NCBI GenBank assembly: GCA_964406405.1
Contig: CAYORN010000004.1
Coordinates: forward strand, 1-64,000
Origin: an uncultured Alphaproteobacteria bacterium
GTDB taxonomy: Bacteria; Electryoneota; RPQS01
Length of the DNA stretch: 64,000 bases
Direction: 5' to 3'
The notes under the pieces were generated by a model. That model was not told the origin of the DNA, did not search any database, and was given only the letters and a program-made list of their open reading frames with translations. Numbering within the stretch: position 1 is the stretch's first letter; each line of letters opens with the position of its first letter. The position numbers and the translations under genes are program-made. Positions 1 through 16,721 of the stretch are shown one piece after another.

Positions 1-19
1 TTGTCAGGGGCTCTAAGTC

Positions 20-81
20 TGGCGGAGAGACGGGGATTCGAACCCCGGATACCGGTTGTGCCAGTATGCACGCCTTCCAAG
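20..81 (-). repeat. 62-nt direct repeat identical to the 3' part (anticodon loop through CCA) of tRNA-Ser(GGA) at 16629..16690; putative distal att site of a tRNA-integrated island
   Basis: 62/62 identity to 16629..16690 in the same orientation; identity ends abruptly on both sides. Confidence 0.8.
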
Positions 82-317
82 GGTTGCAAAGTACGGTATT
101 TTCAGGTCAAACGCGATGACATCAGGCCAGTTCTCGGGCGATTTGTCGTGCGGAGGCGTGTGAGTTAGAGCATCCAGATCGGACCAAGGGGGCTTGTTAA
201 TCGGCTTATGAGAGTCCGCTACGGCAATTGCTCGCCAAATGCGAATTAGCCTCGCAGAATCGGGGTAGGGAAGAGGCTGTTTTCGCGAGGCGGTTACTGA
301 TCAGACGATGGCGATTG

Positions 318-346
318 ACAAAAAGGCTCCCCATTGCTGAGGAGCC
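318..346 (-). terminator. Rho-independent terminator (minus strand): stem GGCTCC/GGAGCC with 10-nt loop followed by TTTTTGT
   Basis: hairpin ggctcc-ccattgctga-ggagcc at ~325..346, with A-run 318..324 on plus (T-run on minus); ~75 nt downstream of the stop of CDS 422..1006. Confidence 0.6.
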
Positions 347-421
347 GTTCGCTTGTCGAAATCAGCCGCTGTTCGAGGTGTGTTGATCTATGAGACTTGA
401 ATGCCCAAGGCGGGATTGTAT

Positions 422-1006
422 TCATCGGCGCATGATCTCGCTTCCAGTATTCTGATGACGGCCTTTTGTTGGTTGCGTTGTGATGGAGCCGTTGCCGGGC
501 ATGTGAATGGCGGCGGGAGCGCTGCCCGCGCTGGAGGTCACATTGTAGAAGTACTTCGAGGCCGGCAAGGACACGGCCCCCACGTCCGTGAATGTGTTCG
601 TCGCGCTCGTGCCCAGCAGATTTAGCGGACCGGGCGTGAACGTGGGTGTCACGTCGCGATAGATCGTGTAGAGCATAGCACCGTTGATTGCGCCCCAATC
701 GAGCTTCATGTTCGTTGACGCGGGTTGACGCCGGATTACCAAGTCCTGAATCGGGCTTAAGGGCGAAGCCGCAAACGAGGGTGTAAGAAAACCTGCCGAG
801 AGCACGAAGTTCGCACTGGAGGAGATGCCGATGGGCGTGGGCTGGCCGAAGGCGCTGTACAACCGGAAGTCAGCCGAGGTACTCGCTGCTCCGCCCGCAT
901 CCAAGACGCTCTTGGTGATGCGGAAGTTTTCGCTCTGTTGCGGTTGAGCAAAGAGTGCAGAACCGCACAATAGTGCGCAGATGAGGATGAACAGAACACG
1001 TTTCAT
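422..1006 (-). CDS. hypothetical secreted protein (signal peptide), last gene of a 3-gene minus-strand operon
   Basis: ORF with N-terminal hydrophobic signal peptide MKRVLFILICALLCGSALFA; start overlaps stop of upstream gene 1008..3104. Confidence 0.5.
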   Translation of the reverse strand: MKRVLFILICALLCGSALFAQPQQSENFRITKSVLDAGGAASTSADFRLYSAFGQPTPIGISSSANFVLSAGFLTPSFAASPLSPIQDLVIRRQPASTNMKLDWGAINGAMLYTIYRDVTPTFTPGPLNLLGTSATNTFTDVGAVSLPASKYFYNVTSSAGSAPAAIHMPGNGSITTQPTKGRHQNTGSEIMRR

Positions 1007-1007
1007 C

Positions 1008-3104
1008 TTACTTCCCCTCCTTCATGGTCTTTTGTTCAGCAGCTTCGAGCGTCTGCACCCGAGCGCGCAGAGCAGTGTTCTCCACTTCCACGGCTTCGAG
1101 TCGCTTCGCCAACTCCTGAATGGCCGCCAGCGCGATGCCGTCGGGGTCAATCGTGGAAATGCCGAGGCTGTCCTCGCCGAGATGGAACGCGCTCCAGAAA
1201 TCCTGCGCCATCGGACCGATGTGCTCGATGGATGGGTCTTGCGACTTGTAGCTCCATTGCTTGATCGGAAGCTGAGCCACTCTGTTGAGCACATCCTTCG
1301 TATCCACGAGCCGGAGGTTGCGCTTCAGGGTGGAATCGGAAACGGCCACCCATGCGCCTGCGCCTGCCGCCAAAGTCACACCAGAGGTGAGAGTGGAATT
1401 GGAGTAGATTTGTGTCCCACCCGAGGCTCTCACGCGGAACTGATTGTTGGCCATGGAGGAGAATAAGGTGTTGGTCGAATCGGCCCACACGAACGAGCCT
1501 ACATTATCCGCGTTGGCGTTACGTCCGGCGGCAAATGCATAGCGCGCGCTGGCGGTGTTGTTGTATCCGCCTGGAACAACAGCGCAGAAATCCGATGCGA
1601 CGTTGCTGTAGCCGCCGCCCACCGTAGCACGGTCACCGCTGGCATCGTTGATGTGGCCGCCGCCCACGGTAGCATAGTTGCCGCTGGCAGTATTTTTTGC
1701 CCCCCCACCAATAGCCGAATAATCGCCTGTGGCAGAATTGCTGTCAGCAAGTGAGGCCCCACCGCCGCCGGCGACGACCGCGTAATCTCCTCGGGCATGA
1801 TTGAACCGGCCGCCGCCCACCGTGGCGTGGTCGCCGCTGGCAGTGTTTGAAGCGCCGCCGCCCACGGTGGCATAATCGGTGGCAGTGTTGTTTTCGCCGC
1901 CGCCGACTGTCGCCGATGCACCGCTGGCATTATTGGTTTTGCCGCCACCGATCGTCGCCCAAGTGTTGCTGGCGATGTTTCTTGACCCGCCGCCAATCGT
2001 TGACTTGTCTCCTGTCGCTGAATTTGAGTCAGCCAAGGCTGGACCACCGCCACCAGCTACTACCGAGTATTGGCCACGTGCTGCATTGTGCGATCCTCCA
2101 CTCACCGTGGCTGCAGATCCGCCGGCAGTGTTGCCGTCTCCTCCTCCCACGGTGGCCCTATCTGAACTAGCATTGTTGTTTTGGCCGCCGCCGACCGTGG
2201 CGAAGCCTGCGGTGGCAGCATTGTTACCTCCACCACATGAAACGGCAAAGGGGGCAGAGGCGGTGTTGTAACTCCCGCCACCCACCGTGGCATACATACT
2301 TGCCGTGTTTGAAATGCCGCCGCCCACTGTAGCCCATGAGCCGCTGGCGGCATTTGATTCGCCGCCGCCCACTGTGGCAGCGCGGCTGGCAGTGTTTCCG
2401 CTGCCGCCGCTTACCGTGGCATGGTAGTCGCTGGCGGTGTTGCCAACGCCGCCGCCCACCGTGGCTGTCCAGGCGGTGGCAGTGTTTGAGGAGCCGCCCC
2501 CCACCGTGGCAGCTTGGCCGCTGGCCACATTCGCGCCGCCGCCACCCACCGTGGCATACCAGTAACTGGCAGTGTTATCAAAGCCGCCGCCGACCGTGGA
2601 ATAGTCGCCGGATGCCGTATCGTACGCTCCTGCCACGAAAGCATTGAGCCCGGGATTTGAATTGTATTGGCCGATATTCGCCTTGTCCGCAATGGTCACA
2701 GCACTTGTGATGGCACCGCCACTGGCGCCATCTACGGTTCCCACGCGATAGGAATAGCCAACCGAGACAACGCGCGAGCGGGGTGTCATCTCGGAGTTGT
2801 TGCCGACTGTAATGCCCAGCCAGACTTGCGCATTATTGAAAACAGCATCACCAAGAGTGGTTATCTGTCCGAGCCGAACATTGAAGAGGCCATCAGTAAT
2901 CGTCACGGATGGACGCGCTTCCGTCCACAGCAGACTTCCCGCCGTGGAATCGGTGTAGATTTTGAAGGTCATGGCTACGGTGGTGTCCAACGGACTCCCG
3001 TCCGTGGCGGTGAGGAAGCCCTGATAGTTAACCTGCTGCGGGACGGCGAACGCAATCGAAACCGTCATGACAAAGAGAATCAAATTGAGAATGTGGCGTT
3101 GCAT
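1008..3104 (-). CDS. tail-fibre-like surface protein: signal peptide, ~25 tandem Gly-rich 13-aa repeats (ATVGGGxxNTASxxx) and a C-terminal peptidase-S74 intramolecular-chaperone auto-processing domain
   Basis: C-terminus SDSTLKRNLRLVD...WSYK...EHIGPMAQDF followed by coiled coil matches the S74 chaperone-domain signature (SDxxLKxNI...YxYK...HIGxIAQE). Start taken at internal Met (MQRHILNLILFVMTVSIAFA signal peptide) rather than the TTG at 3284. Confidence 0.75.
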   Translation of the reverse strand: MQRHILNLILFVMTVSIAFAVPQQVNYQGFLTATDGSPLDTTVAMTFKIYTDSTAGSLLWTEARPSVTITDGLFNVRLGQITTLGDAVFNNAQVWLGITVGNNSEMTPRSRVVSVGYSYRVGTVDGASGGAITSAVTIADKANIGQYNSNPGLNAFVAGAYDTASGDYSTVGGGFDNTASYWYATVGGGGANVASGQAATVGGGSSNTATAWTATVGGGVGNTASDYHATVSGGSGNTASRAATVGGGESNAASGSWATVGGGISNTASMYATVGGGSYNTASAPFAVSCGGGNNAATAGFATVGGGQNNNASSDRATVGGGDGNTAGGSAATVSGGSHNAARGQYSVVAGGGGPALADSNSATGDKSTIGGGSRNIASNTWATIGGGKTNNASGASATVGGGENNTATDYATVGGGASNTASGDHATVGGGRFNHARGDYAVVAGGGGASLADSNSATGDYSAIGGGAKNTASGNYATVGGGHINDASGDRATVGGGYSNVASDFCAVVPGGYNNTASARYAFAAGRNANADNVGSFVWADSTNTLFSSMANNQFRVRASGGTQIYSNSTLTSGVTLAAGAGAWVAVSDSTLKRNLRLVDTKDVLNRVAQLPIKQWSYKSQDPSIEHIGPMAQDFWSAFHLGEDSLGISTIDPDGIALAAIQELAKRLEAVEVENTALRARVQTLEAAEQKTMKEGK

Positions 3105-3390
3105 GGGGAATCTCCATTTTCGGTTACTGTGAGAAATATTGGCGTTGTAATTATAATTAGAGCATTCAGAACCGTTTGCCGGCTCACGGCGGAAACGGTT
3201 TATTTTTGGGAAGTATTTCACATTCTGAAGGAAGGATTTTGTTGCGTTGCCTGTCGGGTGTGTTGCCAAAATATCTGGCGCCAAGGAAAACTACGCCACG
3301 AATAATTTCGGCAAGACGGATCCCGGCGAAGCACACACAGCATGCCTCACCTTCAGAATGAACTCGTACGTGTCGCGCCTGAATGACGCC

Positions 3391-6300
3391 CTATCTGTTT
3401 GCAATCACTCGATAGAACAGTTTGTCCTGTACCGAATACGACGTGGTGATTGTGGTGTCCGGCGTCGTGGTCAGGAGACTGAATCCACTGTCGGGAGTGT
3501 TCGAGCGTTGCACATCATAACTGGTGGCGAAGCCCACCGGATTCCAATAGAGCCGTAATTGCGCACCGTCCACTCGCATGACCAGCACCGGTGGCGAAAG
3601 CGTGATCACCAACACGGTTTGCACTCCCGACCACGGCCCTGGCCCACAAGTGTTTTCACCCCTTACGCGCCAGTACCATATGCCGAGCGGCGCGCTCAGG
3701 ATTTGGTTGTAGCACAGCGCGGCGGTGTTGGCCGCAACGGGGGAGCCGAACTGCGCGTCGTCATCCCACTGGATGCGATACGTGGAGGCGTTGGCTACGG
3801 CAAGCCAGCAATACTGCTGTACGATGCCGCTCAGCACAACGGCGCCATTTCCGGGATTGCCCAGAGCGGGAGCTTGAGTGACGGTGGGGAGTAAAAGCCC
3901 CTGATCGGGCAGCGAGGCAGGTCCAGTACCACAGGTATTCCATCCGGAGACGGTGTAACTGTACGTTCCGGTTGGAGGTGTGTCCGTGCACGTCAGAATA
4001 TTCGCACCGACGGAGCACACTTGCTGGCCATTGCGATAAACGTAATATCCGTTCTCTCCCGCCACATCATTCCAGGTGATGACGATGTTGTTGCAACTGT
4101 TGTCCGTGGCGGCGACGCCGGTGACCTGCGGAGGCGGGGCAAGACGGGTGCCATTGTCGGAAAGAGATTGAAATCCATTGCCGCAGGAGTTATAGGCGTA
4201 GACGATGTAAGCATAGGTCCCCGGAGCGGGCGTATCAACACCGTTCGTTATGTTGGCATCCACGGTGTCGACAATGCCGCCGTTGCGGCAGACGTAGTAC
4301 CCGTCCTCGTTGCTGACATCATTCCAGGTAATGACGACGTTGTTGCAGTGGTCATCGGTGGCGGTGACGCCGGTGACTTGCGGCGGCAGACAGCAGCTCG
4401 GATTGGCGCACGCAGGACCAAGGTCCGTTACCTGTAGGCCATAGTTACCGGTAGCAGTCCCGTAGCCATGCACGAGAATCAAGTACTCCTCGCCAAGCCG
4501 AGAGCACCAGCCGACCTGCGAGACCAATGGGTTAAAGCAGTTGCTATTGTCGTTTTCGGCCGCGCAGACGAGAGCCGAACAGCCGCAGGTAAAGACGGAG
4601 ATTCTGCTATTGTAATTCGTCTCGTTGAGGCACAGGGTCGCCATCAGACTGTCGCCGGTTCCGATGACTTTGTGCCACACGCCAGGCGCCGTTGCCGGCG
4701 AGGAACATGCCGGAATTTCATCTAATGTGGCGCAGACAGTAGATCCAACATTCAAGTGATTTACCCCGACGACGATGGCATTCGCACACTGATCGTTGGA
4801 TGGTGGGCCTGTTGTGCCAACAACACGGATGCAGAAATCCCCTGCCGGAACAATCGCTACTGGCAGCCAGTACTGACCCGGGGAGAGGCCACCCCAGTGG
4901 AATGTAAACCGTGCATCAGCGCAAGTCGTTTGGTCAAACTCCAGCATGGTGTAATTTGTACCACAACATGATCCCGGGAAGAGACGGTTAAGAACCGAGC
5001 CATAAACAGGAGTCCCACAATACTGGACAGAGATATCCATGCACTGACTCAAGCTAAAGGTGTACCAAACTTCCGTCATTTCTATGGGAGTCTGCGCGCA
5101 ATCGCGTGTTGAGCCCAGGGTCGTGCCACATGTGGGTGTCGCCGCATTCACCGTAAGCGGAATCGCATTAGCGCAGTTGTCATTGAGGGGAGCGCAAGGC
5201 CTCCAGTTGATCTGAACCCGATAATCGCGGGGGAATGGCACACCCTCGTAGTTCTGCGGAGCGATGACGAGTGCGTACGTACCCGGGTTCAGGCAGGCCG
5301 TTCTCATGTCCATGCTCATGCATTCGGACGGATTCATGTAGGACATAGCTACCGTGCAGTTGCTTGTGTCCACGATGCTGACGAATAACGGGCACTCGGC
5401 GCCCCATGCGATCAGCTCGACGGTGTCGCGCTCCGCCAGAGTAAACAGGTACCAATCAGTATCGCGGTAAACGAAGCCGCCATACCTGTAAGTAAAGACA
5501 TGGCCGAATATGGTTTGGCCGTTCTGTACGGAGCTGAATTGGTGGGGAGTGGAATTGCAACCACCGTCAGGGTCAGTTTGCCAGAAGGTAGGATTGGAGC
5601 AATCCTCTGCGACCTCGATGACGTCCCCCGGTGTAGCCGTGACATCGCAGTTCGGGCACATTACGGCCTCGAGCACGTAATCCCCGCACGCGCCGCCGTA
5701 GCCGTCCACCACGACGTAGTACGTGTTCCCGGCATAGAGTTGAAGGCACTCGAGGTACGAGCGAAACGAAGCGGAGGCGCAGGGGCAGATCGAAGCATCG
5801 TCGCTGCAGGCGATGGGTGTCCCACTGCAGGAGTTCTGATAAACGTACAGCTTGGTGTCATAGCTCGAACGACACAAGCTGAAGCTTACCTGCTGATCGG
5901 TCGAGGGACTGTAGAAGTAAACCACGTCACTTGAGGTACTGCTCCACGAGCAGGCATAGTCGTAATCGTTGGCGTAGCTGCATGTACTGCCCGTCCCTCT
6001 AAACGGCAGAGACATGAAAATTGGGTTCGTGCAGTTGTCGCCTTGTGGCGCCTGGCGGCTGACGTTGAGGGTATAGTTGCCCGAATAAGAAGCGTATCCA
6101 TCGACCAGAATGTAATAAGTAGTACCGGCGTTCAGATAGGGACTGACCTGCGATCCCGTGCCGCAGTAATCGTCGTTGCAAGCCAGCGATGTACTGCCCG
6201 GACAAGAACCGCCATATCTAACATCAAGCATCGTGTCATAACCGCTGCCGCAGAGCGAAACATCATAAGTACCGGAGACCGTTGGTGTGAAGGTGTACAC

Positions 6301-7185
6301 TGCATCAGCCGCAGAAGGTCCACCACACGCAGGAATGTACTCGTTGCCCATGCCAGATGTGTTTTGAGAGTCTGTGAAGGGGACGGCTGAAATGGTGAGG
6401 CCCGGACAAACGTCAGGCCCGGAAGGTGGCGGCGGACCAGTGACAGTGAGTGTGTAGTTGCCGGAGTTGCTGCCATAACCGTCTACGATGATATAGTACG
6501 TTGTACCGGCATAGAGCGGCATGATGGTGATCTCGGATTGCAGACCACAGAAGTCGTCGTTGCAAAGTACAACCGTGCTGCCCGGACATCCTCCGCCATA
6601 GCGAAGTTCCAGCTCGGTATCAAAGCCGCTGCCGCAGAGCGAAACGGTGTGAGTTCCCGATACGACCGGCGTGTATTGATAAACAACGTCGGACGCGGAA
6701 CTGTTGCCGCAGCTCGGAGTGAAGTCATTCGACATCCCAGCCGTGGTTCCTGCATCGGAGTACGGAATGCCGGGAATCACAAGCGCGGGACAGTAGTCGG
6801 AGCCTTGGTCGAGCGGGTTGCCCGGCTCGCGCGGCCCGCGAATCTGTGCCAGCACTTGCAGAATCTGTCCGTCAATAACTTTCAGATTCTCACCGCGCAG
6901 TTCCATTTCCTTGCGCTGCCGAACCAGTTCGTTCAGCTCGTCTTGATGAGGATTCGGGGCCGTAAACTGCGGCGACGCGCCGGGGGCAATCGCTGAGAGC
7001 ATCTGCGAGTTTGAAGCACGTGCGTTGTTCAACACAGGAGACGGAGCGGTCGGAACGAGTTCGCTGGCGGACGTTGCCGGAATCGCTTTCGCCGGTTTAG
7101 CGGAATCAGGGGCGGGTTTTTGATCGGCGACGGACATCAAACATACGAGACCGAGAGCAGCAAACAAGAGAAAGAGCTTCTTCAC
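3391..7185 (-). CDS. large secreted multi-domain protein (1264 aa): signal peptide, coiled coil, four ~110-aa pre-peptidase C-terminal (PPC)-like repeats, Cys-rich modules, C-terminal Fn3-like domains
   Basis: repeated module '...DVVY.YTP.VSGT..VSLCGSG.DT.L..RYGG.CPGST...CNDD.CG...AGTTYYI.VDGY....GNYTL.V' x4; N-terminal MKKLFLLFAALGLVCLMSVA. Confidence 0.7.
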   Translation of the reverse strand: MKKLFLLFAALGLVCLMSVADQKPAPDSAKPAKAIPATSASELVPTAPSPVLNNARASNSQMLSAIAPGASPQFTAPNPHQDELNELVRQRKEMELRGENLKVIDGQILQVLAQIRGPREPGNPLDQGSDYCPALVIPGIPYSDAGTTAGMSNDFTPSCGNSSASDVVYQYTPVVSGTHTVSLCGSGFDTELELRYGGGCPGSTVVLCNDDFCGLQSEITIMPLYAGTTYYIIVDGYGSNSGNYTLTVTGPPPPSGPDVCPGLTISAVPFTDSQNTSGMGNEYIPACGGPSAADAVYTFTPTVSGTYDVSLCGSGYDTMLDVRYGGSCPGSTSLACNDDYCGTGSQVSPYLNAGTTYYILVDGYASYSGNYTLNVSRQAPQGDNCTNPIFMSLPFRGTGSTCSYANDYDYACSWSSTSSDVVYFYSPSTDQQVSFSLCRSSYDTKLYVYQNSCSGTPIACSDDASICPCASASFRSYLECLQLYAGNTYYVVVDGYGGACGDYVLEAVMCPNCDVTATPGDVIEVAEDCSNPTFWQTDPDGGCNSTPHQFSSVQNGQTIFGHVFTYRYGGFVYRDTDWYLFTLAERDTVELIAWGAECPLFVSIVDTSNCTVAMSYMNPSECMSMDMRTACLNPGTYALVIAPQNYEGVPFPRDYRVQINWRPCAPLNDNCANAIPLTVNAATPTCGTTLGSTRDCAQTPIEMTEVWYTFSLSQCMDISVQYCGTPVYGSVLNRLFPGSCCGTNYTMLEFDQTTCADARFTFHWGGLSPGQYWLPVAIVPAGDFCIRVVGTTGPPSNDQCANAIVVGVNHLNVGSTVCATLDEIPACSSPATAPGVWHKVIGTGDSLMATLCLNETNYNSRISVFTCGCSALVCAAENDNSNCFNPLVSQVGWCSRLGEEYLILVHGYGTATGNYGLQVTDLGPACANPSCCLPPQVTGVTATDDHCNNVVITWNDVSNEDGYYVCRNGGIVDTVDANITNGVDTPAPGTYAYIVYAYNSCGNGFQSLSDNGTRLAPPPQVTGVAATDNSCNNIVITWNDVAGENGYYVYRNGQQVCSVGANILTCTDTPPTGTYSYTVSGWNTCGTGPASLPDQGLLLPTVTQAPALGNPGNGAVVLSGIVQQYCWLAVANASTYRIQWDDDAQFGSPVAANTAALCYNQILSAPLGIWYWRVRGENTCGPGPWSGVQTVLVITLSPPVLVMRVDGAQLRLYWNPVGFATSYDVQRSNTPDSGFSLLTTTPDTTITTSYSVQDKLFYRVIANR

Positions 7186-7598
7186 GTGATACTCCGGTTA
7201 CATGATAAAATGTTCACAAGAGACGCATAAAAGAAAAGCGGGCACACGGCCCGCTTGCTACTCAACGCTGATATATCTGACCCAGCCGGGTCTGACAATG
7301 TGCTGGCCTTAAATAAACAGCCCAATTTTGGCAAAGTCAAGAACCATCATGATTCGCTTCAACTTTTCATGATTCTCTAAGACTCTATGAGCATTCAACC
7401 TAAACCTAATGATCCCCGCAAGCAACGCCTGTAAGAGAAATTGCCTCGCGAAACTCTCTCCCTTTGGACATTCGTGGCCCGCATCCGGGTAAGATGATCT
7501 CGATCAGATCACTGCAGGTCTTGCCCGCTGGCATGTTTCCTATCGGCTCGCCGATGGAGCGCAAGTTGCCACGGAAACCCGCTCCCACGCGTGCCATA

Positions 7599-7630
7599 CA
7601 CCACCACCTTCGCTATGATGGTGATGAAGG
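7599..7630 (-). repeat. conserved ~32-nt intergenic motif, copy 1 (core cttcgctatgatggtgatgaagg on plus)
   Basis: 23/23 core identity with copies at 11151..11173 and 14066..14088; lies ~420 nt upstream of minus-strand CDS 3391..7185. Confidence 0.7.
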
Positions 7631-7906
7631 GCGACAACCAGTGCTGATTGCAAGTTCTCAGCTTGACGCTGCGCGGCATCTCGATGCCCTTTGGCCTTCG
7701 TCATTTTTGCCATGAGGGTGATGAAGGTGAGCCTTCAAGTCAGATGCTCCGTAGTTGAGTCACATCTGGGTCACGCAAGTGAGTGCAAGTGCCACCAAGT
7801 GACGACAAGTGACGGCCAATGTCGTGACCTGTGTCACGGGCCTTGGGGTGCGGAAGAGCTTGATTTCGCGGGGGTGTTACTGTCTGGGCGAGGCTGACGA
7901 GAAACA

Positions 7907-7932
7907 GGCTCCCCATTGCGGAGGAGCCGGCT
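7907..7932 (-). terminator. terminator-like hairpin (minus strand), near-identical in sequence to the hairpin at 325..346
   Basis: ggctcc-ccattgcgga-ggagcc ~25 nt downstream of the stop of CDS 7952..9391; followed on minus by TGTTTCT (weak T tract). Confidence 0.45.
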
Positions 7933-7951
7933 GAACTTCCGTCATCGAGGA

Positions 7952-9391
7952 CTACTTCAAGAGCATGAGTTTCTTATTCTGCAAGAACTCTTCTGCATCC
8001 AGCCGCACGAAGTAAATTCCCGATGCCAGCCTGCTCCCGTCAAACGTCAGGCGATGAGTTCCGGCTTCAACAAAGCCATCTCTCAGCACGGCCACTTCAC
8101 GCCCCAGCAGATCAAACACGCGCAGGGAGACATGCCCCGCTCTGGGAAGATCGTAAGCAATCATCGTCGAAGCGTTGAACGGATTCGGGTAGTTCTGGTA
8201 GAGCGCGTAGTCCTCGATTAAGGCAGGAGTGGGCATCAACGCCGTCGTTTCGACTGTGACGCAGGCGCACCCTTCATTGTCCGTCAGGTTGGTAACCCGT
8301 AGGATCCACGTCGAGTCGGAGACCCAGAACGATTGCTGGTGGAACGCTCCCACCGGAGGACAACCATCGTCTCCGCAGAAACTCGCGCAATCCAGGCTGA
8401 CCGTGAACAACGGCTCCCCGCCTTCATTGCTGTAGAAAAACACCTCCCGGGTTCCGCCCGGCGTCAGATGCAGACACGTGGATATTTCTGGCGTAATGAC
8501 GATTTCCGCCAACTCGCAGGGCGCTTCGCTGAGGTAGTGATCATACAATGTGTCCAGACTTTCATCAGCCGAACGGGTTCGACGCGGCAACGCCGGAATT
8601 GCCGCCGCTCCCTGCTCTGTCTCCGGACCGGAATACGACCAGCGGGCTGAATCCAACAGCAGGCATTTGGCGGCAATGATGCTGTCGAGTAGAACTCTGT
8701 GGTGCGCGTACGGCTGATGCTCAAGCCACGAGCCGGATCCCGAGAACCCTGCGGCGACCGCGGCAGCACGCAAGGCAGCGCGCAGCGAATCCACCACCTG
8801 TCGCTCGCCCCAAGCCATCAAGCCCACATCGCCGTATCTCACTCGCCCACTGTAGCCCTGTGGATGCGGGCTGCTGGAATGGATAATCCCGCCGAACGTG
8901 TCGGTGACCGAATGAATCGTGTCATTGGGAGCCAGCGACGACCAACAGGACACAACCTGAACCAGAACCACAGAGTCCGGCTTGGCCATCAGCCGGTAAG
9001 GCTGATAGTCGGTGAGTCCGGTTCCGCCGCCTTCGCTACCCTGCGGAGCAAAACCGGAGTGGTTATTGCCGTTGATCAGAATGCCGCCGCCGGCAATCAG
9101 CTCGCCGCCTTCCAGCTCGGTTCGGATGCCGTGGGCGATGACAATGAACGTATCACCGCTATGCGTCGTGCACCAGATGCTGTTGATGTCTCCGCCGACC
9201 GCCAGCGTGTCGCCCGGTCGAGCGATCTCATGATAGTAGCCCTCCATGAACGAAGCGATGCCGCTGTTCGACTCTTCTGATATCCAGACTACCTTGCGGG
9301 CGTGACCCGGGTTGGCTGAAATCATCATGATCAGTACGAGTGCTGTTATCAATCCCGCACATGTGAGACGTCTCATGTTGGTCTCCTTCAC
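7952..9391 (-). CDS. secreted protein with T9SS (Por) C-terminal sorting domain; function unknown
   Basis: C-terminus ...[33 protein letters not shown]...[22 protein letters not shown]; N-terminal signal peptide. Confidence 0.7.
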
Positions 9392-9576
9392 AGTAAAAGG
9401 CAGCTGGCATAGGAGTTGAAACCACGCGCCTCAGCTTCCGGTGCAGTGCACGCGCAAAAAAGGCGAGGCTTCCTGCCCCTGCGGGAAACCTCGTTGCAAA
9501 GTATGGACCTTTAGTGAAACTGCCCCGGTCACACCGTGCACAGGCGCGGCTGGAGTGTACCCCAAAAACTGGACAG

Positions 9577-9741
9577 TCAGAAGTGTAGCGTTAGATGGGG
9601 TGTTTGGGGTTGTTTTAGTTTAAGTTCGAAGGCGACCGGGGATAGATATCCGAGAGCCGAGTGCAAGCGTTTCCGGTTGTAAACTTGGTCAATGAAGTAG
9701 GGCAGCCGCGCCTGTGCCTCTTCGAATGTTTTGTATGCCTT
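9577..9741 (-). pseudogene. remnant of an IS3-family transposase (C-terminal end of the DDE/rve domain only)
   Basis: translation ...KTFEEAQARLPYFIDQVYNRKRLHSALGYLSPVAFE matches the conserved C-terminus of IS3-family OrfB (..YNxxRxHSxLGYxSPxxFE); no upstream remainder of the transposase. Confidence 0.6.
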
Positions 9742-9743
9742 CG

Positions 9744-9775
9744 GCCTCGTTTTCTCGCTATGATGGTGATGAAGG
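9744..9775 (-). repeat. conserved ~32-nt intergenic motif, copy 2 (core tctcgctatgatggtgatgaagg); abuts the IS3 remnant
   Basis: 22/23 core identity with other copies; ~355 nt upstream of CDS 7952..9391. Confidence 0.65.
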
Positions 9776-9982
9776 TAGCTACTCATGCGAATGGTTCGTA
9801 TGCCATGCATGCCACTATGCGGCCACATATTCAATCCCCGGAATCGTTTTATTCTCTTGCACAGCGATGCGGTGCTTGCTGGTGCAGGTGCTGTTGTCGC
9901 CCTCTTGCTCAATGACGCTGGCGGAAAGCACTCGGCACTAAACTATATCTCTCAAACCAGGCGCCAAGGGAACAAGTGCCAA

Positions 9983-11116
9983 CTACGGAGTTCTGGAACA
10001 ACGGAATCCGATGAAGTTGTTGCGATTCGCCGGATTGTTGTCGATGCGAGAGGCGCACCGGCTGTTGGAACTATTATTGCTCCACGCGCCACCCCGTATA
10101 ACACGGGTGGAGCCGCGAGGATTATCAATCCATGCGCTGCCGTCAGTAGGAGCGCCATTATAGCTTTCGTGCCAGTCATCTTCGCACCATTCGTCAACAT
10201 TCCCGCACATGTCATAGCAACCCGCCGGACTGATGCCATATGGGTAGGTGCCGACCGGTGAAGTATCAACGTAGCCATCGGCTATGTTGTTGTAGATATT
10301 GGCATTGGTCGGAACCCACGTGTCTCCCCACGGCCATTGGCGATTGTCTGCATTTCCTTTCGCCGCGCGTTCCCGTTCCGCTTCGGTCGGCAGACGCTTC
10401 CCCGCCCAAGTGGCATAGGCACGGGCATCATCCCAAGACACCATCACCACCGGATAGTTCGCATATGCAGGATTCGTGAAGTAATTGGGAGGAATGCCCT
10501 CGAAACCGGGATCGTCAGGATAAGCCCGTGCTGTCGCATCACAGAACAGCTTATACTGGGCGTTGGTCACCTCGTACTTGTCAATATAGAACGCCGGAAC
10601 GTTCACCGTGTGGATGGGTAGCCCATAGGGCCACCAGTAATCAGCTCCCATGTCGTACGGCCCCGCCGGAACCAGAACCATGCCTGCGAAATCTGCTGTG
10701 GAGAACGACCAAACAGGTCCCGATGTCGAATGATCGTGGTTATCATGTGCCACGATTTGCCAGTAGTAGGTCGTGCTGTCTGCCAACGTTTCCAGACTGT
10801 AGGTAGTTTCAGATTGAACCGGACTTACCAATGGCGGCGTGCTTGATGTGCCAAAGTAAACATCGTAGGTCAACAGGTCACTATCGGGATCACTGCAGCT
10901 CCACGTGAGATTCACGTCGATAGATTGGTCCGTTGCCTGATTCGCAGGTACAGGATTTGACGGCAGATTCGGCGCGCTGTTGTCTGTTGGTTCCGCTGTG
11001 TCATCACTCTTGTCGCAACCATTGAGAAGCACCAGCAGGGTGATGCTTACGGCGATGCAAAACTTTCTTGGGCAACTCATGATGTGATCCCTATAATTGT
11101 GGATTGTCGAGTTCAC
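9983..11116 (-). CDS. formylglycine-generating enzyme (FGE)-sulfatase family (SUMF1/EgtB/PvdO-like) lipoprotein with N-terminal Fn3-like domain
   Basis: MVLVPAGPYDMGAD...YEVTNAQYKLFCD...YPVVMVSWDDARAYATWAGKRLPTEAERERAAKG...RVIRGGAWSNN...FRCSRTP; lipobox LLNGC. Confidence 0.8.
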   Translation of the reverse strand: MNSTIHNYRDHIMSCPRKFCIAVSITLLVLLNGCDKSDDTAEPTDNSAPNLPSNPVPANQATDQSIDVNLTWSCSDPDSDLLTYDVYFGTSSTPPLVSPVQSETTYSLETLADSTTYYWQIVAHDNHDHSTSGPVWSFSTADFAGMVLVPAGPYDMGADYWWPYGLPIHTVNVPAFYIDKYEVTNAQYKLFCDATARAYPDDPGFEGIPPNYFTNPAYANYPVVMVSWDDARAYATWAGKRLPTEAERERAAKGNADNRQWPWGDTWVPTNANIYNNIADGYVDTSPVGTYPYGISPAGCYDMCGNVDEWCEDDWHESYNGAPTDGSAWIDNPRGSTRVIRGGAWSNNSSNSRCASRIDNNPANRNNFIGFRCSRTP

Positions 11117-11141
11117 AGAGATGATTGTGCCTGCGCCACCT

Positions 11142-11173
11142 CGTCGTCATCTTCGCTATGATGGTGATGAAGG
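11142..11173 (-). repeat. conserved ~32-nt intergenic motif, copy 3; ends only ~30 nt upstream of the start codon of CDS 9983..11116
   Basis: cgtcgtcatcttcgctatgatggtgatgaagg; identical core. Confidence 0.7.
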
Positions 11174-11401
11174 CGGCTTACGCATGCAAAGAACCACCAG
11201 AGGTGCTCTTCGCGACGCAAGGCCAACTTTGCCGAAGATATTGATGGGAAACAGGCATGGCCTGTTAGCGGCGCTCTTTCCGATGCATCCTCCGGCGCTT
11301 CCAACAGTTCAAGACTTGCGAGCCTTGCTTGCGCTTGTGTAGAACGGAACGGTTGTGCTCTGACAGCGCAAGAGCGAATTGGGTCAAGAATTGAGGGAGA
11401 C

Positions 11402-12121
11402 TTACTTAAACACAATGATGCACACGGGAATGGCAAACATAAGCCCTAATGCGAGAATCGGCAACATGGCTCCGAGGCTTCTTACAAACGCAACTTGTAC
11501 ATCTCCATCTGCTGCGAGTGATCGTGAATACAACCATTTGGCTATGTACCATGATGAACAAGCCCACAGGATCGCGGCGACAACATCAATGATCAAATGT
11601 TGCTTCACAAACAACGTCGAGATGGAGATCAGTACTGCCATTACAGCAATTGCGATCTCAAGGGATTTTCCTAAGCCTTGTCGCCAACACATGAAACACA
11701 TGAGCCAACTGGCAATAACATGCATGCTGGGAAGCTTGTTCGCACTCGGGCTGAAATCATGTGCATAAATGACTGCCAGCACTCGTTCTGATAGTGTCGT
11801 GCCAAGAATCGGATGCGGAAGAGAAACAGGAAGTAGGAAGTAACATGCAAACGCTGTCATATTGGCTATCAGGAATGCAACCGTACCCAAGGCAAAGCGG
11901 GACCAGTTCTTGGTCACGATCAGCGGCACAACAGGCATCACATAAGCCAACATGTAGATCCACACAAACGCTGGGACCAGCGGTATCTGCTTGTCAAGAG
12001 CGGTTGCAAAATCTCGTGCAGGAAATCCGGAAGCTAGATTACCTACGACTAAGAAGCACAATGTCCAGACGACATATGTGATCAACCACGTGGAAGAAAA
12101 GAACACTCTATGAGAGGTCAT
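11402..12121 (-). CDS. integral membrane protein, PAP2-superfamily-like (phosphatidic acid phosphatase type 2 / inositol-phosphorylceramide synthase-like)
   Basis: six or more hydrophobic segments; PSMH...HLIIDVV resembles PAP2 motifs PSGH / SRxxxxxHxxxD; family assignment tentative. Confidence 0.45.
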   Translation of the reverse strand: MTSHRVFFSSTWLITYVVWTLCFLVVGNLASGFPARDFATALDKQIPLVPAFVWIYMLAYVMPVVPLIVTKNWSRFALGTVAFLIANMTAFACYFLLPVSLPHPILGTTLSERVLAVIYAHDFSPSANKLPSMHVIASWLMCFMCWRQGLGKSLEIAIAVMAVLISISTLFVKQHLIIDVVAAILWACSSWYIAKWLYSRSLAADGDVQVAFVRSLGAMLPILALGLMFAIPVCIIVFK

Positions 12122-12330
12122 CGGTGCTCATGAAATGGTGTGTGTGCGAACGTCAGATTGACAACGTCACATGACTACATGGTATCGCGCGCCCCAAATT
12201 CTGCTTAATGACCTGGTGTTAACGTCCTGAATAGGGGGCAGCAGGCGCGGCTGCTTCACACGTGGGTGCCATTGTCATTCTTTTGCGCCACGACGATGCG
12301 CAAAGCGCGAGCCGGGATTCCCGCATAATT

Positions 12331-12370
12331 CGCAGATGCTTTCATCTTCGATATGACGGCAATGACAAGC
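12331..12370 (-). repeat. degenerate copy of the ~32-nt motif (tttcatcttcgatatgacggcaatgacaagc), ~210 nt upstream of CDS 11402..12121
   Basis: shares ttcatcttcg.tatga.gg..atga..ag with the other copies; lower identity. Confidence 0.4.
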
Positions 12371-12395
12371 GCACTTCATCGTCAGAAACAGTGCT

Positions 12396-12830
12396 TCAGA
12401 AGCTGCTCCACCCCCTCCGGCGTAACCGTATCGTTCGCCATGTCGAACACAGGCCATACAGCTTTATGTCGAGAATGGGCGTGCCGTGAATAGCGTCGAG
12501 TCCTTGTACTTGAAGTGTCCTCTCCATAACTGACAGTAGGTGAACTGCTGTTATTCCGATAGGATTGAGGCGGTGCTTGGCACGCTGCGCAAAGATTCCT
12601 GGTAATGGCATGTCATCACGGTCCCGCGGACGACAAATGATATGCTTACCTGAATCAAACTCCGCTTCGTGCATCCAATAGACTACCAGAATGTGGGACA
12701 AAGCCTCAAGACCACGTAACCCTGAAGCTAACTCGGGGGCAATTTCGATCAGGGCTACAACGCTACCCCAGCCGTTGTCCCTGCTTTCTGCTACTGCCGA
12801 CTTCACTTTGCCGATGGGTCTCATTTCCAT
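12396..12830 (-). CDS. tsaA: TsaA/YaeB-family SAM-dependent tRNA methyltransferase (tRNA-Thr t6A37 m6 methyltransferase-like)
   Basis: MEMRPIGKVKSAVAESRDNGWGSVVALIEI..EALSHILVVYWMH..PRDRDDMP..GIFAQRAKHRLNPIGITAVHLLSV...LDIKLY matches the UPF0066/TsaA fold. Confidence 0.65.
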   Translation of the reverse strand: MEMRPIGKVKSAVAESRDNGWGSVVALIEIAPELASGLRGLEALSHILVVYWMHEAEFDSGKHIICRPRDRDDMPLPGIFAQRAKHRLNPIGITAVHLLSVMERTLQVQGLDAIHGTPILDIKLYGLCSTWRTIRLRRRGWSSF

Positions 12831-12910
12831 GGCAACTCACTTGCCCCCAAGGAGATGAGTCACGGTCATCCGTCTTGGTCCCAACGCAACGACATTCACC
12901 ACGTACGCAA

Positions 12911-13771
12911 TTATTGACCGAGAATGATTGGTAATCCGTTCTTGCCAGATCCAATAATTACAGTCTTTGCGTTTTGAGACTTTGCAATATCCATTGTAGC
13001 CTCAATACCCTTCCAGGCAAGTAATTTGTCGCTAATGCTTTCAGATATGATCTTCTGGAAGTCCTTGATCCCTTGGGCTTCGATTCGTTTTCGCTCAGCT
13101 TCTTGCTTTTCTTTTTGCAGAACAAACTCCATTTTCTGGGCTTCTTGTTCAGCCGTTGCCTTAGCATTAATTGCCTCAGATACGCTTGCAGGCAACTTCA
13201 AACTGCGCATCGGAGTTTCTTCAATCGTGATACCACGAGGACCGACAACCGTCGCCAAATCAGTTTTCAACTTACCGGCGAGAATGGTACGGTCAGCAGT
13301 ATAAAGAGCTTTTGCCTCTGATGTCGTCGTGATATCACGTGTTACTGAACGAAAATTGGGTTCTAGGAGAACCAATGGATCACCGTTCTGTACGGTTTGC
13401 ATCATGACTGGCCACGCTTCTTTTGTGACATGGAAGAAGCAAGATACTTCAAGTTCACACGACAGACCTTCTTTGGATGGCGTGATCATTGTTTCTTTGA
13501 TCTCTTGGGTGCGTGTCGGCTTATAGATTACATCAGCAAACGGGTTCACGAAATTGATTCCGGGATCAAGTGCAATTGGCTGGATCACACCGAACAAGTC
13601 AACAACACCACAACTGCCATTAGGAACGGTACGCACCATACTGAAAAGTGCGAAGATTGCTGCGAGAGCAATAATAATACCTTTCCCCCAACTGGGAACT
13701 GCATTGGACTCCCATTTTACGAAAAACGAAACGACAAATAGTGCAAGAAGCGACATCGTTAGATAGATCAT
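12911..13771 (-). CDS. SPFH/band-7 (prohibitin/HflC-like) membrane protein
   Basis: N-terminal TM segment, SPFH core, C-terminal coiled coil (AEQEAQKMEFVLQKEKQEAERKRIEAQGI); no NfeD partner gene adjacent. Confidence 0.7.
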   Translation of the reverse strand: MIYLTMSLLALFVVSFFVKWESNAVPSWGKGIIIALAAIFALFSMVRTVPNGSCGVVDLFGVIQPIALDPGINFVNPFADVIYKPTRTQEIKETMITPSKEGLSCELEVSCFFHVTKEAWPVMMQTVQNGDPLVLLEPNFRSVTRDITTTSEAKALYTADRTILAGKLKTDLATVVGPRGITIEETPMRSLKLPASVSEAINAKATAEQEAQKMEFVLQKEKQEAERKRIEAQGIKDFQKIISESISDKLLAWKGIEATMDIAKSQNAKTVIIGSGKNGLPIILGQ

Positions 13772-13813
13772 CGTTGTTACCTTTCTAAGGTTGTTTGGGT
13801 TTGCTGTTTTGTG

Positions 13814-13837
13814 TGGCAGAGGGGATTCGAACTCCCG
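13814..13837 (-). other. orphan tRNA 3'-end-like fragment (T-arm plus acceptor; minus strand reads CGGGAGTTCGAATCCCCTCTGCCA) with no full tRNA body
   Basis: GTTCGAATCC T-loop flanked by complementary arms and ending ...CTGCCA; upstream 5' half absent; ~40 nt upstream of the SPFH start. Confidence 0.5.
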
Positions 13838-13963
13838 AATTCACCACATATTGTACGTCGTCAGCCAAATGGCACACTTTCCTGGGTGACATAATTGACC
13901 AATAGAAGAGCACCTTAGGGACAGAGCCCGCTGTCTCGAATACTCATAATCCAGCGTCGTGGC

Positions 13964-14170
13964 ACCATCACCGCGTCCGCTATCATCTTCGCTTGATGGT
14001 GATGAAGGCAGCAGCCGAGGACAGGTTGAGCAGTGGTTACGCACCGCTTCCGGCGACGCCGTTATCTTCGCTATGATGGTGATGAAGGAACGCAGACGGA
14101 GACGGACTGACCAGTGCTGACGCTCCGATTCCGGCTATCGCCGTCATCTTCGCCATGATCGTGATGAAGG
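13964..14170 (-). repeat. mini-array of three copies of the ~32-nt motif (cores 13987..14008, 14066..14088, 14147..14170) spaced 79-81 bp, separated by unrelated 48-49-nt spacers
   Basis: cgccgttatcttcgctatgatggtgatgaagg / cgccgtcatcttcgccatgatcgtgatgaagg / ...tatcatcttcgcttgatggtgatgaagg; same orientation as the solitary copies; 210-400 nt upstream of CDS 12911..13771. Confidence 0.7.
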
Positions 14171-14499
14171 TGGTGCCCGGAAATCATATTACCAACCAGA
14201 GTACTCTGTTTCCGCTTGCTGAATCGACGGGCAATAGATAGGCGGCAGCGACAGGCCACTCTCCGAAGTTGTTTCGTATCAAGATAGTAAAACGTCGATC
14301 CGGAATCAACGGTTGCTCCGGCCGAATTTTGACGCAAGGCGGCGACAAAACGCGAGCGAAAAACTCGCGTCCGAGTGCCAGTGCACGAAATGCACGCGTA
14401 ACATAAACAAACCATTAGAGACTGCCGTATACTGTGCTGAAGCACCAGTGTGCTGTTCTCGTCCTGTTCGCTAATGACACTCCGCATCTCCGTCGCCTT

Positions 14500-14543
14500 C
14501 GACCAAACAAAAACCCTTGTTAAACAATAGTTTAACAAGGGTT
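14500..14543 (-). terminator. Rho-independent terminator (minus strand): perfect 14-bp stem AACCCTTGTTAAAC/GTTTAACAAGGGTT, 4-nt loop, then TTTGTTTGG
   Basis: perfect inverted repeat at 14512..14543; T-rich tract on minus strand (A-rich 14500..14511 on plus). Confidence 0.6.
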
Positions 14544-14547
14544 AAAA

Positions 14548-14574
14548 GGTGGAGACGGCGGGAATCGGACCCGC
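14548..14574 (-). other. second tRNA 3'-end-like fragment (minus strand GCGGGTCCGATTCCCGCCGTCTCCACC) lacking a 5' half
   Basis: T-arm-like stem GCGGG/CCCGC around TCCGATT, then acceptor-like CGTCTCC-A-CC; resembles the 3' region of tRNA-Ser(GGA) (..CCCCGTCTCTCCGCCA). Confidence 0.35.
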
Positions 14575-14647
14575 GGCACTCTTCTCTCCAAAGAGCATTA
14601 AATCAAACAATCACAGCACTGTAGCACATCGCGGAGAACACACTCAA

Positions 14648-15880
14648 CTAGTGGACTGACTCATCTACAGTGATGGGTAGAGGCTGCGCAGTTTGATGCG
14701 GGCGTCTTTGGTCGTAAACTGCCAGTTGATTTTCGCAATGCGACCGTTGCGTGCCGTTTCCCAAGCGGTGACTTCGCGACGCAACCGCTCGCTGCTGGCG
14801 AGACGGCGCTTGAGACACTGTTTCGTCAGGATGCCCAACTCGATCTCCGCGATGTTCAGCCAACTGCCATGCTTGGGCGTGTAGTGGATTTCCAGGCGAT
14901 CCGTCAGTCGTTTCGCTTCCGCCGGCGGGAAGGTCGCATAGAAGGACGCGGGGGGGTGCGTGTTCAGATTGTCCATGATCAGGACGATCCGTTCGGCATC
15001 GCGATACATCGTGTTCATCAGCTCTCGCATCGTCAGCGCCCAGCCCTGCTTCGTGCGCTGTTCAGTCACCTGCACATAACGCCTTCCCGTCAGCGGATCG
15101 CTGAACAGGAAGAGATTGGCCACCCCTTTGCGCACGTACTCGGCATCGTAGCGCGCCGCCTGTCCCGGCACCATCGGGAGCGGATGACGGATCTCGCCTA
15201 ACAGTTGCTTGCTGGTCTCATCCATACAGATCAGCGGACGCTGGGGATCATACGGCCGCTGGTAAACATCCAAAACGTCTTCCATGTGGAAGACATAGTC
15301 CGGATCCGCCTTGGTGGGGATCACCCACATCTCTTGAAGCCACGGCTTCAACGCATTTTTTTTAGCGTGCGCCGCACCGTTTCGCGCGCGACGTGGGGGC
15401 AGTATTCGAGGACGACCATCTGCTGAGCCAGCAGCCGCACCGACCACTGCGCGTGGCCTTCCGGCGGCTCGCTGCAGGCCAAAGCAATCAGATGCGCCTC
15501 GGCATTGCCATCCAACACGCGTTCATACTGACGTGTGGTCGGCCGGCGTTCCAGAGCCGCCTCCCAGCCGTCTTCGACGAAGCGTTGGCGCACCCGCTCA
15601 ATCGTGGAGATCGCCACGCCCAGCGCGTCGTGGATCTCGGGATCGCTGCGCGAGAGGCCATCAGGACTGGTATCCGCCTGCAACAGAATGCGGGCATGGG
15701 CCTGCTTGCGAGCGGATGACTTCCCTTTGCGCGTCAGCTCAAGTAACTGTTTGCGCTCCGCTTGCGAAAGCACCACACGGTACTTCTTGCGCATGACTTC
15801 CTCCGGTTATGCTGTCAGCAATCTCCCGGAGTATAACATGGCTCAAAAAACAACTCGAATCAAGTAGGTCGCTCCACTAG
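14648..15880 (-). mobile_element. IS630-family insertion sequence (~1.2 kb) with imperfect terminal inverted repeats CTAGTGGAC / CTAGTGGAG
   Basis: two overlapping transposase ORFs bracketed by inverted CTAGTGGA at 14648..14656 and 15873..15880; exact ends and TA duplication not resolved. Confidence 0.6.
14665..15794 (-). CDS. IS630-family DDE transposase made by programmed -1 frameshift (orfA 15348..15794 HTH; orfB 14665..15447 DDE) at an A8 slippery run (15355..15363)
   Basis: orfA: HTH (AISTIERVRQRFVEDGW). orfB: DDE core ...LIMDNLNTHPP...HYTPKHGSWLNIAEIELGI. 100-nt overlap contains CTAAAAAAAATGC, and the -1 product joins ..TLKK to NALKPWLQEMW. Confidence 0.8.
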
Positions 15881-15925
15881 GCGCAGGCAAAAGCATTTTA
15901 TGCGTTTGGCGTACTAAATCGCTAT

Positions 15926-16537
15926 TCAAGCCGTCGTCGGGTACGTGGCGCTTGCGCGTTGAAACAGCAATGCAGATGAGACAAACAGCGCGACGAAGAA
16001 CGCATTTAAGATGAAGACACCCACTACACCAGGGGGTTCTTCCACGGTGATAACCGGCTTCCAGATAATCAGCGCAATCACGGGGACCAACGCCTGAGCG
16101 AGCGCCGTCGCGAACAACGCGCGCGCCATTCTACGCGGCTTCAAGCGCGCGATGGCGGCACCGATGAATCCGACGACGAGCACACCGAGATACAGCACGT
16201 TGGCGGGGTGGTCCTCGGATCCAATGATCCCGACGGCAAGATTTAACCAGATGAGGATCAATCCTGCCGCCACTGCAATGCCGACGGCGACCCGGTACGC
16301 GATACTGTCCGACATTCTTGTTATCAACACATACGCGAGACCAGTGCCGAACAGGAGGACGCCCATGACAATGAAATCACCCAGGCTCCAGGCCACTTCA
16401 TCGGTGAACTGCATCGCCAACAAGGGTATCAGCAATATGAACGCTGTCGCCAGCGCAATGCGGATAATGTTTTTGTTTTGCACAATGATAAATGTCATGT
16501 TCGCTCTAATAATTCCCGCGGATGTTTCGACGAACAT
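15926..16537 (-). CDS. hypothetical polytopic membrane protein
   Basis: 203-aa ORF with 5-6 hydrophobic helices; no recognisable motif. Confidence 0.45.
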   Translation of the reverse strand: MFVETSAGIIRANMTFIIVQNKNIIRIALATAFILLIPLLAMQFTDEVAWSLGDFIVMGVLLFGTGLAYVLITRMSDSIAYRVAVGIAVAAGLILIWLNLAVGIIGSEDHPANVLYLGVLVVGFIGAAIARLKPRRMARALFATALAQALVPVIALIIWKPVITVEEPPGVVGVFILNAFFVALFVSSALLFQRASATYPTTA

Positions 16538-16628
16538 CCAGAGAGCGCAACCGAATAATCCTCTTTCTTCCTTCTGCCGCGCCTTCGGCGCGACCGTCCT
16601 GCCTCCTTTCGGAAGTGGAAGTTACATT

Positions 16629-16721
16629 TGGCGGAGAGACGGGGATTCGAACCCCGGATACCGGTTGTGCCAGTATGCACGCCTTCCAAGCGTGTGCCTT
16701 CAACCACTCGGCCATCTCTCC
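16629..16721 (-). tRNA. tRNA-Ser(GGA), long variable arm, CCA encoded; integration target of the upstream island
   Basis: GGAGAGATGGCCGAGTGGTTGAAGGCACACGCTTGGAAGGCGTG...CGGGGTTCGAATCCCCGTCTCTCCGCCA; anticodon loop TTGGAAG; 7-bp acceptor pairs. Confidence 0.9.

Follow-up and report, generated by a model that had tools for sequence, protein, structure and literature searches.

An intact tRNA-Ser(GGA) gene and a detached copy of the 3′ end of that same gene lie some 16.5 kb apart at the start of contig CAYORN010000004.1 (GenBank assembly GCA_964406405.1), which derives from an uncultured bacterium of the KSB1 group, and the question raised by this locus is how the DNA between them came to be there and what it has since become. 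We analyzed positions 1 to 64,000 of the contig, hereafter referred to as the window, following up an earlier note, made from the letters alone, that had proposed the integration of a genomic island into the tRNA gene. Our results support the core of that proposal, and we assign a probability of roughly 0.8 to the reading that positions 82..16628 constitute a genomic island that entered the chromosome by site-specific recombination at tRNA-Ser(GGA) and that later lost its integration genes.

The tRNA-Ser(GGA) gene was called by ARAGORN, in agreement with Rfam, at 16629..16721 on the minus strand, and the other two tRNA genes called in the window, tRNA-Ser(CGA) at 16901..16991 and tRNA-Arg(ACG) at 22168..22242, lie on that strand as well. 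Positions 20..81 are identical to 16629..16690 at all 62 nt and in direct orientation, just as had been claimed, and the window contains no further copy. The identity block corresponds to positions 32-93 of the 93-nt gene (the anticodon occupying positions 35-37), beginning at the last base of the anticodon stem, which borders the anticodon loop on its 5′ side, and ending with the encoded CCA. The copy at 20..81, also on the minus strand, follows the intact gene when the locus is read in the sense of tRNA transcription and represents the attR side of the repeat, while the copy at 16629..16690 is presumably the attL side, supplied by the island itself. The case originally put forward as refuting integration, a second full tRNA gene extending to the left of coordinate 1, mistakes the side of the fragment on which to look: on the minus strand, the 5′ part of such a gene would sit at 82..112. 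The sequence there is unrelated to the 5′ part of the tRNA and ARAGORN calls no tRNA in it, and a second full tRNA arising by tandem gene duplication is thus ruled out. It follows that 20..81 is truly a detached 3′ piece of the gene, oriented in the same way as the intact copy.

Evidence that the intervening DNA was inserted comes from related genomes. No close relative of the host was found among GTDB species representatives, in which the best match to the CorA protein encoded beside the tRNA genes reaches 45% identity. Searches of a large protein collection yielded CorA orthologs at 82, 77, 75, 73, 69 and down to 62% identity, and JGI metagenomes provided one relative with an 82% identical CorA on a contig that stops 5 nt past the tRNA. 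The window and its relatives have in common the gene order tRNA-Arg(ACG), SHC-like, LolA-like, CorA, two small open reading frames (ORFs), tRNA-Ser(CGA) and tRNA-Ser(GGA). On contig L172 (CorA 82% identical), a tRNA-Ser(GGA) gene matching that of the window over all 93 nt is followed by TACTTAAAGCCCCTGACAAAATGATGTC. The reverse complement of window positions 1..19 is GACTTAGAGCCCCTGACAA, and 17 of its 19 bases match TACTTAAAGCCCCTGACAA, which stands directly 3′ of the intact tRNA in L172. On contigs L163 and L164 (CorA 77% identical) the tRNA gene is followed by TAACTTACAAGCCCCTGACAATTGATGTCGGGGGCTTTTTG, a terminator hairpin that also matches the flank at window 1..19, and beyond this terminator lie an HTH_17/PTS_EIIA_2 regulator and then Mrp/hydrogenase-like genes. 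In BLAST comparisons, window positions 1..84 show 96.4% identity to L172 over 84 nt and 94% identity to L163/L164. In L163 and L164 the tRNA 3′ end is not repeated anywhere in the 8 kb downstream of the tRNA. Positions 1..19 are hence the native 3′ flank of tRNA-Ser(GGA) and the start of its terminator hairpin, read on the minus strand, which have moved along with the fragment. At the homologous site, two related lineages (L172 and L163/L164) lack the 16,547 bp that separate the repeats in the window. Since the relatives carry an intact tRNA joined directly to the homolog of 1..19, 82..16628 is an insertion, and since the native flank directly adjoins the fragment, the island ends at position 82.

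The composition of the insert was compared with that of the remainder of the window, as the earlier note had suggested. The tetranucleotide profile of 82..16628 correlates with that of the rest of the window at r=0.885, and all 21 control segments of the same size taken from outside the island score higher (0.92-0.97). In 4-kb windows the correlation ranges from 0.51 to 0.84 inside the island versus 0.84 to 0.96 outside, with a minimum at 10-14 kb, where the correlation drops to 0.51 and the GC content is 0.50. Orthologs of the island cargo were compared for one gene, encoding an SPFH protein, set against the ladder of identities obtained for the flanking CorA. The island SPFH protein has no homolog above 64% identity outside its own 90% cluster, and its next-best matches are spread over several phyla. 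The deviant composition and the lack of close SPFH orthologs agree with a foreign origin of the island.

Which enzyme might have carried out the insertion was addressed by family searches for tyrosine and serine recombinases (the Phage_integrase, Resolvase and Recombinase families). None was found in the main ORFs of the island, and a six-frame Pfam scan of the four largest island gaps, which left out the two shortest, returned the remnant of an IS3 transposase as its sole find. Outside the island, no recombinase was detected in 30 of the 42 listed ORFs of at least 90 aa, the 12 smaller ones (mostly below 150 aa) not being among those scanned. The scanned outside ORFs with a family match are housekeeping genes, such as DinB, Tag, Lgt, Tmk and PurC, and 10 scanned ORFs match no family. 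The absence of a recombinase thus holds for everything that was scanned, as previously reported, and is not absolute given these 10 family-less ORFs and the 12 outside the scan.

The suggestion that the recombinase instead lies beyond coordinate 1 is disfavored, as the island ends at 82. With the native flank in direct contact with the fragment, any integrase encoded further left would probably not be part of this island, barring the insertion of a second element beyond the visible 19 nt. One such arrangement would make the island the first member of a tandem array, in which an active element with its integrase sits just left of coordinate 1 and uses 20..81 as its attachment site. Tandem arrays at tRNA and tmRNA genes are known, with 125 recorded in Islander (PMC4383910), and the DNA left of coordinate 1 lies outside the sequence at hand. 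An element inserted in the fragment would nonetheless part it from its native flank, to which it remains joined, and we regard this arrangement as highly improbable.

Other kinds of mobile element were also considered. Comparison with PHROGs yielded weak or non-structural matches only and no phage modules in the island; neither did family scans and PHROGs reveal replication genes in the 16.5 kb, and no relaxase, coupling protein or conjugation remnant was seen in the island. A prophage or tailocin is rejected given the absence of phage structural, packaging and replication modules. An integron-like array is rejected likewise, there being no integron integrase among the scanned sequences; attC-like structure was judged by eye only, and none was recognized.

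Taken as an island integrated at the tRNA gene, the locus would have the following history. A circular element bearing an attP site, 62 nt identical to the tRNA from anticodon loop to CCA, would have recombined with the tRNA gene through a crossover in the anticodon loop, most likely catalyzed by a tyrosine integrase. The copy carried by the element would have completed the tRNA, and the chromosomal 3′ part with its terminator would have been pushed 16.5 kb downstream, a displacement that is directly visible at 1..81. Integration and transfer genes would later have been lost and the interior reshuffled, leaving the mosaic that is observed today: an inserted IS630 element, an IS3 remnant, an attachment-type relic of ssrA with its terminator, and an SPFH module.

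Several observations weigh against this history, the main caveat to a simple single gain being contig L168 (CorA 62% identical). Downstream of its second tRNA-Ser(GGA), L168 carries a gene for a protein with a type IX secretion system (T9SS) sorting domain, two S74-like genes (45%) and a homolog (51%) of the 194-aa protein encoded at the distal end of the island, in the order and orientation seen at that end; no tRNA repeat is seen within 7 kb in L168. Part of the cargo could thus be old at this locus in some lineages, to judge from these sequences, and the gene set of L168 may represent a different and older occupancy of this site. At its furthest, this observation would make the whole region ancestral at the locus, deleted in the relatives, with the repeat produced by some other duplication. 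Two independent and closer lineages, L172 on the one hand and L163/L164 on the other, would then each have had to lose the region by a deletion with one endpoint precisely at the tRNA 3′ end and the other precisely where the native terminator begins; set against the repeat boundaries at the anticodon loop and CCA end, and against the atypical composition of the region, this explanation is scarcely credible. The tRNA region of L168 has itself a peculiar layout. Its positions 12181-13824 hold two tRNA-Ser(CGA) and two identical tRNA-Ser(GGA) genes, with a VTT-domain gene and a 23S_rRNA_IVP gene between the GGA copies and the T9SS, S74-like and 194-aa-like genes after them, and may represent another rearranged or occupied version of the site.

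A further weakness is that the left flank is visible over 19 nt only. An exact search of genome and metagenome contig collections for the junction (window 1..35) gave no match. When the left flank was sought via the HTH_17/PTS_EIIA_2 regulator, three candidate contigs were obtained, all from other samples, none of which joins window 1..19. No homolog of the regulator on the source contig appeared among the best 120 matches, which indicates that the source contig ends near coordinate 1 or that synteny is lost there. In addition, no intact relative of the element with an integrase was found, so that the class of the recombinase is deduced from the geometry of the attachment sites alone.

The contig is, moreover, metagenome-assembled, and an assembler can mis-thread a 62-nt repeat. 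The 16.5 kb might then be a separate molecule, or belong elsewhere, having been threaded into the locus through the repeat. Two Logan contigs (k=31) of run SRR13723393, L001 and L002, break inside the repeat and therefore lend no independent support to the linkage. Against this, a 62-nt repeat is shorter than an ordinary read, both junctions normally being read through, and a separate molecule would have to do without replication genes. Even as an artefact, the 16.5 kb would need an attP-like match to the 3′ part of the tRNA, and would hence be the same kind of element in another state. We consider misassembly extremely improbable.

If the DNA of 82..16628 is an integrated island, one may also ask whether it is still capable of moving. 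Judging from its gene content, the island would be unable to move by itself and could do so only with an integrase of the right specificity acting in trans, a state resembling that of the cis-mobilizable elements (CIMEs) of streptococci and other Firmicutes, which are defined by the retention of attL and attR and the loss of integration and transfer genes and are thought to be decayed descendants of integrative elements (PMC5704250). The island is like a CIME in retaining both attachment sites without integration and transfer genes, and unlike one in showing no sign of descent from an integrative and conjugative or an integrative and mobilizable element. A stricter version holds that the island is not dead at all, being mobilizable in cis or in trans and still moved by an integrase specific for tRNA-Ser(GGA), the gene of which would lie at another place in the genome or be brought in by an incoming element. 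Besides fitting the definition of a CIME, this version draws on the fact that both 62-nt copies are perfect, though the displaced one is under no obvious selection. It also draws on contigs of several related populations (L083/L173, L165 and L172), which end at or just past this tRNA, as expected of a variable site. The tRNA is, however, 100% conserved among the relatives, and strain mixtures with an identical tRNA could equally cause such contig breaks. The scanned parts of the 64 kb hold no integrase, and the insertion sequences and mosaic interior suggest long residence; continued mobility is therefore rather unlikely. We return to the preferred reading of an island that has lost its integration genes and turn to its contents.

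All major ORFs of 82..16628 lie on the minus strand, as originally described. Following the direction of tRNA transcription, the first part of the island comprises a 203-aa orphan, the IS630 element, a tmRNA 3′ end with its terminator, three copies of an intergenic motif, a tRNA-like piece, and the SPFH, TsaA/TrmO and PAP2 genes. After PAP2 come a motif copy, the FGE-sulfatase gene, another motif copy, the IS3 rve_2 remnant, the T9SS gene, two further motif copies, the gene for a 1264-aa protein, the S74 fiber-like gene and the gene for the 194-aa protein. The insertion at tRNA-Ser(GGA) envisaged in the earlier note thus stands, and its depiction as one coherent element does not: the island is a mosaic containing an IS630 element, an IS3 remnant, a relic of ssrA and an SPFH module common to other loci.

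The ssrA relic occupies 14508..14575 on the minus strand. It consists of the last 27-29 nt of a tmRNA, from T-arm to 3′ end, at 14547..14575 and of the ssrA terminator hairpin at 14508..14546. The former had been taken for one of two orphan tRNA 3′-end fragments; it is a 3′ end, and that of a tmRNA. It reads CGCGGGTCCGATTCCCGCCGTCTCCACC against the Rfam tmRNA consensus cGcGGGUUCGAuUCCCgCCacCUCCACCA (E=1.3e-4 in an 881-nt search) and comprises the T-arm, the acceptor strand CGTCTCC, A73 and CC. For comparison we chose contig L178, which encodes a protein (94% identity by tblastn) grouped with the island SPFH protein in one 90% cluster. It also holds an intact tmRNA gene (2251-2602), the last 27 nt of which, together with the terminator hairpin, are 83% identical to window 14508..14575, the homology ending at the 5′ side of the T-arm. 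On these grounds we read 14508..14575 as an ssrA attachment-type relic of the T-stem class with native ssrA flank. Part of the island DNA therefore once had an ssrA gene as its neighbor, either in the present genome or in that of another KSB1 bacterium. The relic points to the same target gene as that of ssrA-linked islands such as the vinyl-chloride islands of Dehalococcoides, (PMC3146451), and it differs from them in lying inside a tRNA-Ser island and well away from any intact ssrA of the window. It bears witness to the past of this DNA and was not the site of the present insertion.

The second supposed tRNA fragment, 13815..13850 on the minus strand, is tRNA-like and proves to be part of a conserved region upstream of the SPFH gene in three genomes. 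The SPFH/prohibitin gene (12911..13771) and this upstream region together span 12905..13987 on the minus strand and show 86-88% DNA identity to contigs L177 (9783-10864) and L178 (9999-10987). The conserved block contains the gene and 120-215 nt upstream of it, including the tRNA-like piece. Its flanks are unrelated across the three contigs and the homology ends at the stop codon, so that gene and upstream region appear, from these alignments, to form a portable module placed in three unrelated genomic contexts. A homolog of the FGE-sulfatase protein (66-70% aa identity) is present in L178, upstream of the SPFH gene and not downstream. In L177 the module lies among IS3 copies and genes of defense-island type (DUF4007, PAPS_reduct, methyltransferase-HNH, HerA).

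The mobile elements of the interior are two, one complete and one not. The IS630-family element (14651..15876, minus strand; PF13358, PF13565, NF033545) sits in a CTAG site with a TA duplication. Its transposase is split into a helix-turn-helix ORF and a DDE ORF, and its terminal inverted repeats (14648-14660 and 15868-15880) are intact at both ends. The IS3-family remnant, at about 9580..9735 on the minus strand, consists only of an rve_2 C-terminus of some 50 aa (E=8.9e-5) and is also present on Logan contig L002. Both had been correctly recognized in the earlier note, as had the S74, T9SS, FGE-sulfatase, PAP2, TsaA/TrmO and SPFH proteins, all of which match the corresponding domains or families.

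The remaining cargo, to go by its domain content, probably consists of cell-surface and envelope genes held between two intact attachment-site repeats. The fiber-like protein (1008..3284, minus strand; start codon likely at 3104) has Gly-rich repeats and a C-terminal S74 intramolecular chaperone domain (PF13884, E=8.9e-11). It matches no PHROG family and has a single distant match, at 34%, to a viral contig. Its N-terminal region gives a weak, sub-threshold match (NF053851, Bdello_MAT_N, E=2.9e-9) to the N-domain of the mosaic adhesive trimer (MAT) fibers of Bdellovibrio. The T9SS protein (7952..9391, minus strand) carries the C-terminal sorting domain (PF18962, TIGR04183). The FGE-sulfatase domain protein (9983..11116, minus strand) matches PF03781 with E=2.8e-61, the GldK and PvdO models matching below their cut-offs. 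The PAP2-family membrane phosphatase (11402..12121, minus strand) is recognized by its family match, and the TsaA/TrmO-like protein (12396..12830, minus strand) scores 100.3 bits against TIGR00104, for which the cut-off is 93.25. The giant previously described as a PPC-repeat protein, a repetitive product of 1264 aa (3391..7185, minus strand), shows no PPC domain even at E values up to 10; it has no confident domain, and one weak PHROG match covers a 76-aa stretch.

The two ends of the island are occupied by proteins of no recognized family. At the end nearest the displaced fragment, the 194-aa protein (422..1006, minus strand) has no Pfam family, its 51% homolog in L168 being encoded next to an S74-like gene. 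Its N-terminus, read by eye, looks like a signal peptide, and it matches weakly the N-terminus of PamT, a pilus protein of the candidate phyla radiation (CPR). Adjoining the intact tRNA is the 203-aa hydrophobic orphan (15926..16537, minus strand), a single-member cluster that is apparently, on its sequence, a multi-pass membrane protein. Two minus-strand terminator hairpins that are 90% identical to each other (317-347 and 7899-7929; GGCTCC...GGAGCC followed by a T-run) stand downstream of the genes for the 194-aa and T9SS proteins, respectively. Beyond the island, the spacer between the two tRNA-Ser genes is surrounded by an inverted pair of AT-rich repeats of the GAAATCCGAAATCC type (16729-16888), and repeats of similar type (TTCGAAATTCGAA / GGATTTCGGATTT) flank the tRNAs in L163 and L168.

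The intergenic motif, CCTTCATCACCATCATAGCGAAGATGA, had been reported as a novel 32-nt sequence in seven copies. All seven are confirmed by motif search as intergenic and confined to the island, on the minus strand and with no copy elsewhere in the window; they span 7616..14169, with cores at 7616-7629, 7713-7726, 9761-9774, 11159-11172, 13994-14007, 14074-14087 and 14156-14169. The motif is not private to this genome, since its core, TTCATCACCATCAT(A)GCG, also occurs in two KSB1-like contigs, L177 (9398-9411 and 9672-9685) and L178 (about 4809-4848, 9804-9816 and 11908-11920), and a search of viral contigs found no copy of the motif. Its copies are intergenic without exception and point in the same direction as the genes; 4 of the 12 precede a start codon by 45-95 nt, and the motif lies 220-390 nt upstream of every SPFH copy. 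Conservation operates at the nucleotide level, apparent His codons showing no synonymous variation, and some copies are followed by the hairpin GGCATCGAGATGCCGCGCAGC.

These properties could make the motif a promoter or operator, a 5′ untranslated region element or a recombination site. Its position between co-oriented gene modules, and its association with the sharp-edged SPFH module in the window, L177 and L178, open the way to a bolder reading, in which the 18-32-nt motif would be the recombination site of an undescribed gene-cassette shuffling system in KSB1 bacteria and not a mere regulatory box; we deem this very unlikely. Apart from the recurring motif and the portable SPFH module, the island has no features left unexplained.

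The locus as a whole is best read as a decayed, integrase-less, mosaic and CIME-like tRNA island. Its closest counterparts are the tDNA islands compiled in Islander (Hudson, Lau and Williams 2015, PMC4383910; Williams 2002, NAR 30:866), with which it shares its terminal markers (an intact tRNA at one end, a displaced and directly oriented 3′ piece of the same gene at the other), an identity block that starts at the anticodon loop and reaches the 3′ end of the gene restored by the island, an empty site in relatives and an atypical composition. Islander distinguishes crossovers in the anticodon loop from those in the T-stem region, and the anticodon-centered attP class to which the present block corresponds makes up about half of its islands (PMC4383910). 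The island differs from these counterparts in that no integrase gene was found inside it, for which reason Islander's own filter would reject it, in its host, an uncultured KSB1-group bacterium, and in the presence within it of an attachment-type relic of a second target gene, ssrA. It belongs to a well-documented kind of genomic island and is not a new kind of element, and the current understanding of genomic island function is unchanged. What the locus provides is a precisely mapped case of horizontal gene transfer aimed at a tRNA gene, from a candidate division (KSB1) for which metagenomes are the sole source of knowledge; the tRNA-Ser(GGA) site concerned, beside corA, is occupied differently among the related contigs recovered. 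Decayed islands of this sort would be missed by integrase-based island finders. The cargo of this one, comprising a fiber-like adhesin, a T9SS substrate, and FGE, PAP2 and SPFH proteins, points to strain-level variation of the cell surface.

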